Below, piece after piece: positions 8,121-35,235 of a stretch of DNA of 35,772 nt. Position numbers and translations under genes: made by a program. Source of the DNA: a phage; the NCBI GenBank assembly GCA_019566835.1, contig GCA_019566835.1_3045.2. One strand, written 5' to 3'. Below the pieces are notes generated by a model. That model worked only from the letters and a program-made list of their open reading frames with translations. It was not told the origin of the DNA and ran no database searches. Each line of letters starts with the position of its first letter. Positions within the stretch are counted from its first letter, which is position 1.

Positions 8121-8150
8121 ATAGTACCACAGTATGCTTTGGTTGTAAAC
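8121..8150 (-). promoter_or_regulatory. T4-type early promoter upstream of motA
   Basis: Minus strand reads GTTTAC, 18 nt, GTGG-TACTAT, with AT-rich UP region 8151-8180. Confidence 0.65.
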
Positions 8151-8174: not shown

Positions 8175-8203
8175 ATAAAAAAGGGAGAGCCGAGGCTCTC
8201 CCT
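8175..8203 (-). terminator. Rho-independent terminator
   Basis: Perfect 9-bp GC-rich inverted repeat GGGAGAGCC/GGCTCTCCC followed on the minus strand by a 6-U tract, just downstream of the 49-aa ORF. Confidence 0.7.
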
Positions 8204-12803: not shown

Positions 12804-12821
12804 AATTTTCCTTAATATGAT

Positions 12822-12837
12822 AAGGGCCGAAGCCCTT
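12822..12837 (-). promoter_or_regulatory. C(UUCG)G tetraloop hairpin at the rIIB stop
   Basis: AAGGGC-UUCG-GCCCUU overlaps the rIIB stop codon. Confidence 0.4.
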
Positions 12838-13774
12838 ATTTAAATTGTTCAGTAACGTCTTCAACCACTTCGTATTGGCAGGTACGCATTTTAGCATCAT
12901 TGTAATCAATCGGAATTGATACTACATCACGTGGATGTACTTTAACTTTTACAACTCGACTGGTTGAACTGCCAAAGTGACGAATATAAGATTTAGAACA
13001 TACATGCAGACCACGAGAACAAGTTTGTGTATCATCGTCATTCACACGAGTACGCGGCATTTTAACTACTTTACCAGGACTGTTATCAAAGGTGTTTGAG
13101 TGACAGTCAAAGTAGTTGTCACGAACTACTTTCCAAGCATAGAAGTAACCATCTTCGGTGATTTCAATATCGTTTGCTACCAAGAAATCAAAGAGTCGAG
13201 ATACCGCTTTTTGGCTTGGGTTTTCCAGCAGATTTTCCAAGAACGGAAAATAAAATTCAAAATTTTCGCCTTTTTCCATCGAGTCAAGAATACGATCAAC
13301 CAGACCAGACCGTAATTCGATATTTTGATAGAACAAGCTTCCGCCTTCAATTCGAACATCACCGGAAATATATTTTTCAACAGCGCGACGAACATTAATT
13401 TTTTGTGCAGCTTCTTCCAGCTTATCCGCTACAAGCAGATTAAGAATTTCCTGGAAGTTTGAATGAGTATTAGGAGTTGCGTTATAAGTTACACCGTCAA
13501 CAGTAATTGAAATGAATTTTTTAGATGCATTCCAAATAATGTCAGATTTAGCAACTGGAGCAATAACTTCATCGCTATTAACTTTAACTGTAATATCACC
13601 GCTAATAGTAACTTTAGGGCGTTTAGCTTCTTCAGCATTTTTCAAAACACGACGAATTGTGTCAACCGATACACCTTGCCAATCAGCCAATTCCTGTTGG
13701 GTGTAATTACCACTTGAATACAGTTTAACAATTTCAGCTTGTTCGTTTTTGGTCAGGCATTTAATATTGTACAT
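12836..13774 (-). CDS. rIIB: rIIB protein
   Basis: 312-aa ORF, MYNIKCLTKNEQAEIVKLYSSGNYTQQELADWQGVSVDTIRRVL...; T4 rIIB length and position. Confidence 0.9.
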   Translation of the reverse strand: MYNIKCLTKNEQAEIVKLYSSGNYTQQELADWQGVSVDTIRRVLKNAEEAKRPKVTISGDITVKVNSDEVIAPVAKSDIIWNASKKFISITVDGVTYNATPNTHSNFQEILNLLVADKLEEAAQKINVRRAVEKYISGDVRIEGGSLFYQNIELRSGLVDRILDSMEKGENFEFYFPFLENLLENPSQKAVSRLFDFLVANDIEITEDGYFYAWKVVRDNYFDCHSNTFDNSPGKVVKMPRTRVNDDDTQTCSRGLHVCSKSYIRHFGSSTSRVVKVKVHPRDVVSIPIDYNDAKMRTCQYEVVEDVTEQFK

Positions 13775-19591: not shown

Positions 19592-19861
19592 TTAATTGAA
19601 CAGTGGAGCGATGCGTTTCAGAAGAGTAGCAGCACCTTTAGCGAATTTTACATCATGAAAAACAGTTTCTTCTTCTGTAACAACTCGAACTTTAATATTT
19701 TCACAATCCCAATTTTTACGAACAATCTTCAAAAGCTGCAGTAAATCTTTACATTCAGCAATATCGATAACACATCCACGAGAATCTTCCATTATCGCAC
19801 GATAACCGTAAGCCATACCATAATCATTGAAAGATTGCTCGATGATAATTAAGTTTTCCAT
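19592..19861 (-). CDS. Hypothetical protein (89 aa)
   Basis: Start taken at MENLIIIEQ with SD GGAGAATAAA. Confidence 0.6.
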   Translation of the reverse strand: MENLIIIEQSFNDYGMAYGYRAIMEDSRGCVIDIAECKDLLQLLKIVRKNWDCENIKVRVVTEEETVFHDVKFAKGAATLLKRIAPLFN

Positions 19862-19885
19862 TTTATTCTCCAAGTTGTTTTCTGT

Positions 19886-19928
19886 ATCAGTAGTTGATAT
19901 TGATATAGTACCATAATCAACTACTGAT
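19886..19928 (-). promoter_or_regulatory. Promoter-like element with extended -10 inside a 13-bp inverted repeat
   Basis: Minus strand reads TGG-TACTAT with no GTTTAC at -35; the -10 is bracketed by ATCAGTAGTTGAT and ATCAACTACTGAT. Confidence 0.35.
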
Positions 19929-26484: not shown

Positions 26485-27104
26485 TCAACTACCTCAATAT
26501 CATAAACTTTAAATGTTCCAAATGAATCGTGTAATTTTTCTTTTGAAATAGAAGTTATTCTATACTTTCCAATTGGAATCATCCATTCTTGTTCATGCAC
26601 AATCATCATTAAGTTATCAGTACGCTCTGAATCTAGCCCATCAGTATCTTCATACGTGTACTTAAACTCAGTATTAGGAGAAGAAAGTATAATATCGCTG
26701 ATATGGTCAGAGTAATTAAAAGCTTTATCAGTTTTTAAACGAAGTATTGTTTCAGTGAAATATTCAGCATAAGAAAAAGAACACGCTGTATGCAAACTAG
26801 TAGTAAATGAATCTACCCTGTTCGTTGAAAACACTTCTCCAACTTGTAAATCTTTAATAAGTTCTTTTGTCGATTTTGATATACCACGATATAACTGATA
26901 AGGCGATTTAGTTAAATGCTTTTTAATGATTTTATTCAACTGTCTGTGAAGAGCTTCATTCTTTTTGGCTTCCATACATTGCCAAAGAACAGACTGCTCA
27001 AAGTCAGTAAATTTTTCACAGACTTTTTTATACATATCATATTGAAAATCAACGCTTTCAGCTTTTATAGATAACTGTTCAACATCTGCAGGATTAATAA
27101 TCAT
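26481..27104 (-). CDS. modB: ADP-ribosyltransferase ModB
   Basis: 207-aa ORF with LYRG, STN and EQEWMIP motifs; paralog of the adjacent gene. Confidence 0.65.
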   Translation of the reverse strand: MIINPADVEQLSIKAESVDFQYDMYKKVCEKFTDFEQSVLWQCMEAKKNEALHRQLNKIIKKHLTKSPYQLYRGISKSTKELIKDLQVGEVFSTNRVDSFTTSLHTACSFSYAEYFTETILRLKTDKAFNYSDHISDIILSSPNTEFKYTYEDTDGLDSERTDNLMMIVHEQEWMIPIGKYRITSISKEKLHDSFGTFKVYDIEVVE

Positions 27105-27130
27105 GATAGCCTCCGTATACTTCAGAAGCT

Positions 27131-27160
27131 ATCATATCATCGTTAGAAAGGAAAGTAAAC
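27131..27160 (-). promoter_or_regulatory. T4-type early promoter upstream of modB
   Basis: Minus strand reads GTTTAC, 18 nt, TATGAT, then SD GGAGG. Confidence 0.55.
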
Positions 27161-29264: not shown

Positions 29265-29298
29265 CAAAAACGAAAAAAGGAACCCCGAAGGATTCCTT
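29265..29298 (-). terminator. Rho-independent terminator downstream of soc
   Basis: Minus strand reads AAGGAAUCC-UUCG-GGGUUCCUU (9-bp stem, UUCG loop) followed by UUUUUUCGUUUUU. Confidence 0.7.
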
Positions 29299-29303
29299 AA
29301 ATT

Positions 29304-29561
29304 TTAACCACCAATACCTGGAGTTGGCGTAACAGTCCAAAGACCTTCATTAGCAGTGATCCATTCAGTACGCTGATTTTCTTCATATACTGTAGAATAT
29401 GCTGCTTTTTCAGAAGGGAATGTCTGATAATGAGCACCAGAAATTTTGTGAACATCAGAATAAAGAGGGAAAGCTACAGAAATTTCTTTACCCTGAATTG
29501 TACCACCATCAACTGCTTGGTCAAATGTTTTAATATTAACATAACCGCGAGTACTAGCCAT
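29304..29561 (-). CDS. soc: Small outer capsid protein Soc
   Basis: 85-aa ORF, MASTRGYVNIKTF...GKEISVAFPLYSDVHKISGAHYQTFPSEKAAYSTVYEENQRTEWI...; matches T4 Soc as I recall it, with a slightly longer C-terminus. Confidence 0.92.
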   Translation of the reverse strand: MASTRGYVNIKTFDQAVDGGTIQGKEISVAFPLYSDVHKISGAHYQTFPSEKAAYSTVYEENQRTEWITANEGLWTVTPTPGIGG

Positions 29562-33566: not shown

Positions 33567-33749
33567 TTATCCTCGGCAATCCACTTCGCACACTTTCTTG
33601 TCATCAATGAAAGCTTTAACTAATGCTTTATTAACTTCAGCATATTGAGTAGTAGCCCATTGAACGTCATCTTTCATCATTGTGATTTCTTTAGTAAACA
33701 TGCTTTCATTCTTAAACCACCCCATAAAAACTACTTTTACCAATTCCAT
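33567..33749 (-). CDS. dmd: Dmd antitoxin (inhibitor of RnlA/LsoA)
   Basis: 60-aa ORF with SD GAGGAG behind an early promoter, between the 61.x ORFs and gene 41; matches T4 Dmd in length and position. Confidence 0.7.
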   Translation of the reverse strand: MELVKVVFMGWFKNESMFTKEITMMKDDVQWATTQYAEVNKALVKAFIDDKKVCEVDCRG

Positions 33750-33778
33750 AACAATCTCCTCATTTAACCAACAAGACT

Positions 33779-33808
33779 ACTATACCATAGTCTTGTCAGC
33801 TTGTAAAC
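33779..33808 (-). promoter_or_regulatory. T4-type early promoter upstream of dmd
   Basis: Minus strand reads GTTTAC, 18 nt, TATAGT; the -10 sits inside a 9-bp inverted repeat (ACAAGACTA/TAGTCTTGT) and the -35 overlaps the gene 41 stop. Confidence 0.6.
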
Positions 33809-35235
33809 TAAAATTTTAATTCATTTGCCAAAGCATCTAACTGAGCTCGAGCTGATTCGTTTCTTTGATAGCGATTCTGTTCAGCCTGAATCTGTTGTGA
33901 ACCTGCTACTTCACTCACTTCGGTTGGAGTAGAATCTTGTTCAATTTCTACCCATTTTTGATTTCCTTTTTGAACACCCATCAAAAACTTATTCCACTTA
34001 TTCTTATCACCATATCGTGATTTGATTTGCTTAATAAGTTGTTGTTCAGCAGCTGCTAGCTCCTCAGTTTCAATGACCGCAAGCATAAAATCAGCTGTTG
34101 CTGGAAGACCAGCAGATTCTGCAATATCGCTCATGTTAACATCGGAAGAGTCCCAAGCTTGTTTACCGACCTGTGCTGCAGTCCAAAGAACAGTTTCGGT
34201 TTCAACAGCCAGAGCACGCAATTCCTCTGCGATAGCTTTAACAGTTGTGTAACTATTTTCTGAATAAACTCGGATGCGACAAGATTTACAAATACCCAGA
34301 TAGTCGACAATAATGATTGTTGGAACAAAATTCTTTTTGAGCTTCAATTCATTCAAGAGAGACCTGAATGTGTTAGCGTCTGCTCCACCAGTAGGATATT
34401 GCTTAACGATTAAACGACCAAGGGTAGATTTCTCACGCCATTTTTCCATTTTTCCTTTATATTCAGCGTAAGAAATATGCCCATCATCAATGTCATCAAG
34501 AGAAACATCAAGCATGTTAGCGTCAATACGCTTAGCACAGACTTCTTCTGCCATTTCCATGGAAATGTAAAGAACATTATGACCGAGCTGCAAATAATCT
34601 GCCGCTAATGAACACAATCCTAATGATTTACCAACGTTAACGCCAGCCATTAAAACGTTCAGTGTTCCAGTCTCAGCTCCGCCTTTAGTAATTTTGTTTA
34701 GAATTCTGAGTTTAAATGGAACCTTACGAGCTTTATTCATATAAGATAGCCAACGCGCTTCATAGTCATCCATCCAATCATGACCAACGTAGCTATCAAA
34801 TGAAATTGATAATGCTTGGCGCATGATGTCAGGAATAGCACCTACATCTGGCATTTTCTTATTTCGTTTTTCCGGAGGAAGCTCAGCATTAGTTTGAATT
34901 TCGATTATTTTAGACGTAGCATTAAACATCGCCCTTTGCTGAACATATTTTTCTGTTTCTTTTACTAACCAGCTGTGGTCTTCTGGAGAATCAGCCAGTT
35001 TTGAAATAAGTGTTTTTACACCAGAATATTCTGTTTCAGTAAATGAACTATTTTCTAATGCAACATTTAACGCATTAATAGATGGAACGCTATGATACTC
35101 ATTAACATGAGATTTAATTAATTTGAACGTATTTTTAGCTGGACCACTTTCAAAATATTCTGAATCCATATATGGCCAAACTTTTGAAAAATAAGCTTGA
35201 TCAAATATAAGATGAGAAAGAATAATTTCTACCAC
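33808..35235 (-). CDS. 41: Replicative DNA helicase gp41 (DnaB family)
   Basis: 475-aa ORF with Walker A GVNVGKS and DnaB-like motifs; T4 gene 41 length. Confidence 0.95.
   Translation of the reverse strand: MVEIILSHLIFDQAYFSKVWPYMDSEYFESGPAKNTFKLIKSHVNEYHSVPSINALNVALENSSFTETEYSGVKTLISKLADSPEDHSWLVKETEKYVQQRAMFNATSKIIEIQTNAELPPEKRNKKMPDVGAIPDIMRQALSISFDSYVGHDWMDDYEARWLSYMNKARKVPFKLRILNKITKGGAETGTLNVLMAGVNVGKSLGLCSLAADYLQLGHNVLYISMEMAEEVCAKRIDANMLDVSLDDIDDGHISYAEYKGKMEKWREKSTLGRLIVKQYPTGGADANTFRSLLNELKLKKNFVPTIIIVDYLGICKSCRIRVYSENSYTTVKAIAEELRALAVETETVLWTAAQVGKQAWDSSDVNMSDIAESAGLPATADFMLAVIETEELAAAEQQLIKQIKSRYGDKNKWNKFLMGVQKGNQKWVEIEQDSTPTEVSEVAGSQQIQAEQNRYQRNESARAQLDALANELKF

Follow-up and report, generated by a model that had tools for sequence, protein, structure and literature searches.

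The inverted repeat that surrounds the -10 element of the dmd early promoter is best read, in our view, as part of a composite element that acts at the level of RNA. We consider it fairly probable that the site is a cassette of the PeSL (promoter-early stem-loop) type, in which an early promoter is interleaved with a sense-RNA hairpin that insulates or marks read-through RNA. The dmd cassette looks like an ordinary example of a known promoter-plus-hairpin kind, and we would annotate it as a single composite in which an early promoter is combined with a hairpin that forms in read-through RNA only, and as neither an operator nor a plain terminator. The broader result, that about a third of T4 early promoters lie within sense-strand RNA hairpins, is a modest one and was largely foreseen by the PeSL papers and by the cases of e, soc, and I-TevI. 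When promoters lie in hairpins, the RNA made from the promoter itself and the RNA that reads through it differ in structure, and through that difference the origin of a transcript may set its translation, its accessibility to RegB or RNases, and its stability. Because dmd-tifA is an anti-defence operon, which transcripts express it matters for studies of the conflict between phage and host.

The window, by which we mean the whole 35,772-nucleotide stretch of phage DNA that was analyzed (contig GCA_019566835.1_3045.2), comes from a Tequatrovirus (T4-like phage), and all genes in the region examined lie on its minus strand. About 475 of the 503 Tequatrovirus genomes that matched share 95 to 99.5% identity with the 601 bp around the repeat, and T4 is ~98% identical. 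By the T4 annotation, the open reading frame (ORF) of gene 41, the replicative helicase, occupies 33808-35235 (-) and ends in the stop codon TAG at 33808-33810 (-), the G of which completes GTTTACA. The dmd gene (gene 61.5) lies at 33567-33749 (-) and encodes a 60-aa antitoxin against RnlA and LsoA that is 100% identical to T4 Dmd. A gap of 58 nt separates the gene 41 stop codon from the dmd ATG. Read in the direction of transcription, it contains first the -35 and then the hairpin, with its 5' arm in the promoter spacer, the loop with the -10, and the 3' arm; the Shine-Dalgarno sequence (SD) comes last. On the coding (-) strand, the sequence from the gene 41 stop to dmd reads TAG-TTTACA-agctg-ACAAGACTA-tggtatag-TAGTCTTGT-tggttaaatGAGGAGattgttATG.

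The promoter itself scored 10 of 12 in our consensus scan, with the -35 TTTACA, a 17-nt spacer, the -10 TATAGT, and a TG extension all present. The -35 hexamer (33802-33807, -) is invariant across relatives, and the extended -10 (33779-33787, -), which consists of TGg at 33785-33787 and TATAGT at 33779-33784, is invariant in dmd orthologues. Immediately 5' of the -35, within the end of gene 41, lies a UP-element-like A/T-rich stretch, TGAATTAAAATTT (33811-33824, -), and AATTAAAATTT-TAG directly precedes TTTACA. Standard sigma-70 geometry predicts that transcription starts at the G at 33772 (-), the seventh nucleotide past the -10. The SD, GAGGAG (33756-33761, -), begins 5 nt past the extended stem and is followed by 6 nt and then the dmd ATG, which together form the 3' end of the cassette. 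The assignment of this site as the dmd early promoter, made in an earlier sequence-only reading, is borne out by PMC9391042, in which the dmd-61.4 locus is placed under an early T4 promoter with citation of Liebig & Ruger 1989 and Miller 2003; the independent GenBank annotation of phage fPS-65 also marks a predicted early promoter here. As a separate observation, the dmd translation start region (33741-33755, -), AGAUUGUUAUGGAA, contains AUUGUUAUG. PMC3014915 gives aaAAUUGUUAUGUAA as the RegA SELEX consensus, of which AUUGUUAUG forms the core, and dmd may for that reason be a RegA target.

The same reading had reported a 9-bp inverted repeat with the -10 in its loop. The repeat is real: ACAAGACTA and TAGTCTTGT form a perfect dyad at 33771-33779 and 33788-33796 with an 8-nt spacer between the arms, and the T4 dmd promoter carries a 10-bp version of it. 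The placement of the -10 needs a small correction, in that the first five bases, TATAG, lie in the spacer and the sixth, T, opens the 3' arm. Across the window as a whole, repeats this long are more numerous than in shuffled sequence. We counted 16 with arms of 9 bp or more and loops of 3 to 20 nt, against 4.4 +/- 2.3 in dinucleotide shuffles, and 7 with loops of at most 10 nt, against 1.9 +/- 1.4. From these shuffle counts, we infer only a low probability, on the order of 1e-3, that a repeat of that size would by chance coincide precisely with any one -10. The half-site core ACAAGACTA has no further copy within the window, and Rfam scans of the whole window and of 33650-33900 returned nothing meaningful.

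Folded as sense RNA, the repeat extends well beyond its perfect core. The 5' arm, AGCUGACAAGACUAU (33787-33801, -), fills the promoter spacer around the Watson-Crick core at 33788-33796; the loop in the RNA fold is GGUAUA (33781-33786, -), or 8 nt (tggtatag) if Watson-Crick pairs alone are counted; and the 3' arm, GUAGUCUUGUUGGUU (33766-33780, -), with its perfect core at 33771-33779, overlaps the last -10 bases and covers the discriminator and the predicted start site. The stem comprises 15 pairs, of which 4 are G.U and only 4 are G-C. For a 32-nt RNA that includes 13 of these pairs, the folding energy is -15.3 kcal/mol (z = -5.6), a value matched by none of 200 shuffles, and the full sense stem reaches -18.9 kcal/mol in both 42- and 55-nt windows, against -10.1 kcal/mol for the antisense strand. 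As single-stranded DNA, either strand folds at a mere -6.7 kcal/mol, and such a weak hairpin with an 8-nt loop makes a DNA cruciform unlikely. None of the four SD bases examined and none of the three AUG bases are paired in the fold (0/4 and 0/3), and the SD in T4 is likewise unpaired (0/4).

The position of the predicted start site gives the hairpin its likely logic. Because that site lies inside the 3' arm, RNA from the promoter itself would lack the 5' arm and could form no hairpin, so that the hairpin, as placed by the predicted start, would arise only in RNA that reads through from gene 41, whose stop codon precedes the hairpin by 6 nt. In the mechanism that we propose, a strong sigma-70 early promoter for dmd-61.4(tifA) would be interleaved with a hairpin that functions as sense RNA. 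Gene 41 read-through transcripts, which are middle-mode RNA, would form this hairpin, and the transcript starting in the 3' arm could not; the hairpin would thereby mark and insulate read-through RNA at the 41/dmd junction. Its most likely roles would be two, together or singly: a structural barrier that shields the gene 41 message on its 3' side, or a processed dmd-tifA message on its 5' side, from ribonucleases, and a point of pausing or attenuation for read-through. The free SD indicates that the hairpin does not block dmd translation, which favors an insulating, stabilizing, or attenuating role over translational masking. Attenuation, for its part, may be weak, given an A/U-rich stem with so few G-C pairs and no U-tract. 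Insulation or stabilization of RNA at the 41/dmd junction is probably the job of the hairpin.

PeSL cassettes were described in T4-type phages by Arbiol et al. 2010 (PMC2839356) and were extended to the T4/PST pair by Comeau et al. 2014 (PMC4122927). They have been proposed to attenuate upstream transcription (PMC2839356) and to mediate modular exchange (PMC2839356 and PMC4122927). The literature that we searched offered neither maps of T4 start sites or 3' ends nor any reference to dyads at T4 early promoters.

The sequence-only reading had further suggested that a -10 flanked by dyad symmetry is a recurring architecture, and a survey of promoters in the window and in T4 substantiates this. 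Among 16 minus-strand promoter candidates of the TTTAC/TTGAC type in the window, 4 fall in the lowest 1% of 55-nt folding energies. In the T4 genome scan, where early-promoter candidates were defined as pattern matches (n = 43), the lowest 2% of background folding energies takes in 15 candidates (binomial, 3e-15). Each of these 15 very stable T4 hairpins has a stem that encloses the -10, and the sense strand is the more stable one in 13 (means of -19.7 and -14.5 kcal/mol for sense and antisense; Wilcoxon, 4e-4). Stem sequences are unrelated among the 15 promoters, with a single match to dmd, the mobD.2 paralogue considered below. A canonical terminator lies within 90 nt upstream of 0/15 hairpin promoters versus 6/28 others, a marginal difference (Fisher, 0.076; background, 2%). 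The other example given in that reading, at 19886-19928 (-), is also genuine, with 13-bp arms, ATCAGTAGTTGAT and ATCAACUACUGAU, around TGGTACTAT, a folding energy of -20.2 kcal/mol, and a z of -5.3; its T4 equivalent lies between motB and cef.

Several further features of this promoter landscape deserve mention in their own right. On the 3' side of the 19886-19928 hairpin lies an ORF (19592-19862, -; 90 aa from its ATG), where T4 has only cef and a 170-nt gap. A leader, CTATCAACTAC(T/G)G..., is conserved past -10 elements of the TGGTACTAT type at promoters with the -35 at 8149, 11970, and 11457, at the 19886-19928 hairpin, and in other genera, and wherever a hairpin exists the promoter spacer is individually complementary to CTATCAACTAC. 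Upstream of modB, at 27095-27135 (-) (about 13185 in T4), a hairpin AUGAUAGC...GCUAUCAU (-17.4 kcal/mol sense versus -9.6 antisense) begins within the -10 and covers the downstream SD and start codon, and it likely masks that start in read-through RNA. The hairpin AUAAGGGC-UUCG-GCCCUUAU at 12805-12845 (-), with its UUCG tetraloop, lies between a TTTAAA -35-like hexamer and the -10 TATCAT, which it overlaps. In T4, the sites at 136335 (5' of alc) and 123092 (5' of alt.-3) are a near-identical cassette pair at distant loci, each with the SD buried in the 3' arm. At 8182-8203 and about 29275-29305 (-), the G/C-rich canonical terminators AGGGAGAGCCTCGGCTCTCCCT-TTTTTT and AAGGAATCCTTCGGGGTTCCTT-TTTTT stand immediately upstream of the -35 at two early promoters without an enclosing hairpin; both terminators fit the "AGnA-loop-TCnT" stems described for the T4/PST PeSLs.

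Conservation across Tequatrovirus is consistent with a role for the RNA stem. The possibility, raised in the sequence-only reading, that the dyad is missing from homologous dmd promoters of close relatives found no example; the dyad is kept in all Tequatrovirus genomes examined, with 343 of 517 records identical over 51 nt and the others different at 1 to 3 bases. Among 9 dmd haplotypes, all 8 variable positions lie in the stem, 7 of them in the 5' arm, and every variant still pairs in RNA (135/135 cells). The variants of T2, T6, fPS-65, G8, ERS-1, and BCH953P2 introduce mismatches into the DNA dyad and keep the RNA pairs as G.U. Taken alone, the dmd orthologues carry one-sided transitions exclusively, and their pairing is no better than in shuffles; since pairing would survive 13 of the 15 possible 5'-arm transitions in any case, these sequences are no more than consistent with RNA pairing, and their covariation is uninformative. 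A metagenome pattern scan yielded 6 loci and a viral-contig search 5, all nearly identical and thus adding little variation.

A paralogous cassette provides the stronger comparison. The region upstream of mobD.2 (T4 NC_000866, 57925-57995, -) carries a near-identical copy, TTTACAAGTTGACAAGATTATGGTATAGTAATCTTGTCAACT (T4 57989), present in about 490 Tequatrovirus genomes. A self-match of the palindrome was the first explanation considered for the second BLAST place in each genome; a reciprocal search with the mobD.2 cassette also hits two sites in most genomes, so that this cassette is the likely second place. In the joint alignment of 9 dmd and 6 mobD.2 haplotypes, all cells are paired (225/225), and three stem pairs have changed on both sides between dmd and mobD.2, from C-G to U-A, and T2, ERS-1, and ECO78 carry U.G as the intermediate state. 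In 500 shuffles of this alignment, neither the observed pairing nor the double-change count nor the covariation score was ever reached, and slid registers score far worse; the covariation comes from two paralogue clades and so reflects few independent events. The mobD.2 stem is followed by GCCAAGGAG, without any U run, which identifies the stem, and not a terminator tail, as the conserved feature.

Two cases of rearrangement near these cassettes were also observed. In phage vB_EcoM-PM105 (MZ234041.1, 166134-166284), the mobD.2 cassette shows an inversion of its loop and inner stem, with TTACTATATCATAA replacing TTATGATATAGTAA; the stem stays intact, a usable -10, TATCAT, is left at 17-nt spacing, and the change looks like a palindrome-mediated template-switch event. 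In RB27 and HY01, the dmd ORF alone is divergent (57 to 90% nucleotide identity in 30-nt bins; 67% protein identity) and is flanked by DNA that is 87 to 100% identical. The divergence is bounded on the 5' side by the dmd ATG, right past the cassette, and on the 3' side by the dmd/61.4 junction. We read this as an allele swap of the antitoxin gene, with diversifying selection on dmd as the alternative. The replacement adjoins the cassette, and the neighboring gene 41 is a conserved core gene.

Beyond Tequatrovirus, dmd promoters homologous to this one are absent in Mosigvirus, Gaprivervirus, Dhakavirus, and Krischvirus, where dmd directly follows another ORF, and for these genera we compared the promoter of the ORF upstream of dmd instead. 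What Mosigvirus and Dhakavirus show there accords with our preferred reading. In Mosigvirus, a 14-bp hairpin unlike that of dmd surrounds the -10 (-21.7 kcal/mol; z = -5.5) and carries the SD in its 3' arm, and in Krischvirus the promoter has a G/C stem of 7 bp. A canonical terminator stands just 5' of the promoter in Dhakavirus and Gaprivervirus; in Dhakavirus the order is gene 41, the terminator, and then a promoter region without a hairpin (z about 0).

This last arrangement bears on the reading of the dmd hairpin as a Rho-independent terminator that ends gene 41 transcripts, its overlap with the promoter being accidental. The annotators of SA20RB independently predicted a rho-independent terminator here (TransTermHP/WebGeSTer); the hairpin stands almost directly past the gene 41 stop codon, at the place equivalent to that of the canonical Dhakavirus terminator; and one PeSL stem cut reporter expression as strongly as rrnB T1 (PMC2839356). 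Against these points, our consensus scan does not call the dmd hairpin a terminator. Only 4 of its 15 pairs are G-C, and its tail reads UGGUUAAAU when counted from the core and AAAUGAGG when counted from the complete stem. In the mobD.2 paralogue, the stem is preserved with a tail that lacks a U run, and the other hairpins of the promoter-enclosing class in the window are likewise without U-tracts. We therefore judge a plain terminator to be unlikely.

It is also possible, if quite improbable, that the RNA has no function, the dyad being either a neutral by-product or an element that matters in DNA only, as a recombination hot spot, a mobile cassette, or a quasi-palindrome kept by template switching. 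The proposed role of PeSLs in modular exchange (PMC2839356 and PMC4122927) speaks for this, as do the divergence of HY01 and RB27, which is confined to the dmd ORF and has its 5' boundary at the cassette, the occurrence of the dmd-type cassette at two loci, and the PM105 inversion, which is typical of a palindrome-mediated event. However, the compensatory changes with their G.U intermediates and the sense bias over 15 promoters indicate selection for RNA pairing, and spacers are individually tailored to complement the conserved leader CTATCAACTAC.

Translational masking of the e/soc/I-TevI type would leave dmd silent in read-through RNA, with Dmd made only from its own early promoter. Such masking is a documented T4 mechanism for promoters in hairpins (PMC3014915), and the SD is fully paired in the 3' arm at about 8 to 9 of the 15 T4 hairpin early promoters; several sister promoters (T4 8217, 62796, 65412, 53942, 166806, 136335, and 123092) bury it. 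At dmd, moreover, the distance from the end of the stem is only 5 nt to the SD and 17 nt to the AUG. Yet neither the SD nor the AUG is paired there, the stem is closed at its base by weak G.U and A-U pairs, and the requirement for Dmd against RNase LS at middle and late times (PMC3014915) speaks against silencing of read-through RNA. These observations make masking at dmd decidedly unlikely.

The sequence-only reading had proposed a DNA operator, on which a phage or host repressor dimer would bind the duplex dyad and occlude the -10 to control the timing of dmd. The perfect 9-bp dyad (10 bp in T4) centered on the -10, the near-identical dyad at a second early promoter 5' of mobD.2, and the incompletely explained shut-off of T4 early promoters, for which AsiA is not responsible (PMC2988021), could all be enlisted in its favor. 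The proposal nevertheless fails, because the hairpins share no sequence, their DNA symmetry is not conserved, and their pairing is strand biased. The other 13 T4 promoters with such hairpins have stems of unrelated sequence and thus offer no common recognition site; the half-site core is absent elsewhere in the window; the six phages with mismatched dyads spoil the DNA symmetry and keep the RNA pairing; and the strand asymmetry that G.U pairs create is unexpected for an operator in duplex DNA. As we read PMC2988021, there is no known repressor of T4 early promoters, and PMC2839356 had earlier presented this layout as a composite promoter/stem-loop cassette. An operator at dmd is therefore very improbable.

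That hairpins enclosing the -10 act in DNA through structure and not sequence, whether as an extruded non-template hairpin that pre-melts the -10 or as a target of an unknown T4 early protein, strikes us as scarcely credible, and if true, such a role could aid the unusually fast firing of T4 early promoters or their still unexplained shut-off.

Comparison with known systems places the dmd cassette among the PeSLs, with features of its own. With operators of the lac/lambda/LexA type it shares a perfect dyad centered on the -10, but the class to which it belongs has no shared recognition sequence or conserved DNA symmetry, is strand biased, and has no known cognate protein. With Rho-independent terminators and REP-type stabilizers it shares a stable stem-loop directly past a stop codon, at the place where Dhakavirus has its gene 41 terminator, but the dmd hairpin has neither a G/C-rich stem nor a U-tract, and its role as a barrier is conjectural. 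The nearest T4 parallels in logic are e, soc, 49, and I-TevI, whose promoters lie inside hairpins, so that folding is restricted to long transcripts (PMC3014915). There, as at dmd by its predicted start site, the promoter sits in the 5' half or loop of the hairpin, and read-through RNA folds where the promoter's own transcript cannot. Those promoters, however, are late (or middle), and the SD and/or AUG lie in the helix, whereas dmd has an early promoter with both the SD and the AUG outside it. The likeness to PeSLs is the most extensive. The dmd cassette lies between ORFs on the same strand and combines a stretch rich in A/T with a -35 and -10 of the sigma-70 type, set 17 nt apart, and a stable stem-loop that overlaps the -10 and is followed by the SD and ATG; the class has many copies per genome, including near-identical ones at different loci, and the dmd copy adjoins what may be a swapped gene allele. 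The PeSL promoter of the T4/PST pair, TTTACW...TAYWAT, is also like that of dmd. The stems differ in kind: those of RB49 and phi1 are G/C-rich (Gn-loop-Cn), and one has been shown to terminate, whereas the dmd stem is A/U-rich with G.U pairs and is predicted from its sequence; those of T4/PST are described as "just upstream of" the promoter, as suits the canonical AGnA...TCnT terminators seen in our terminator survey, whereas the dmd stem encloses the -10 and lacks a U-tract.
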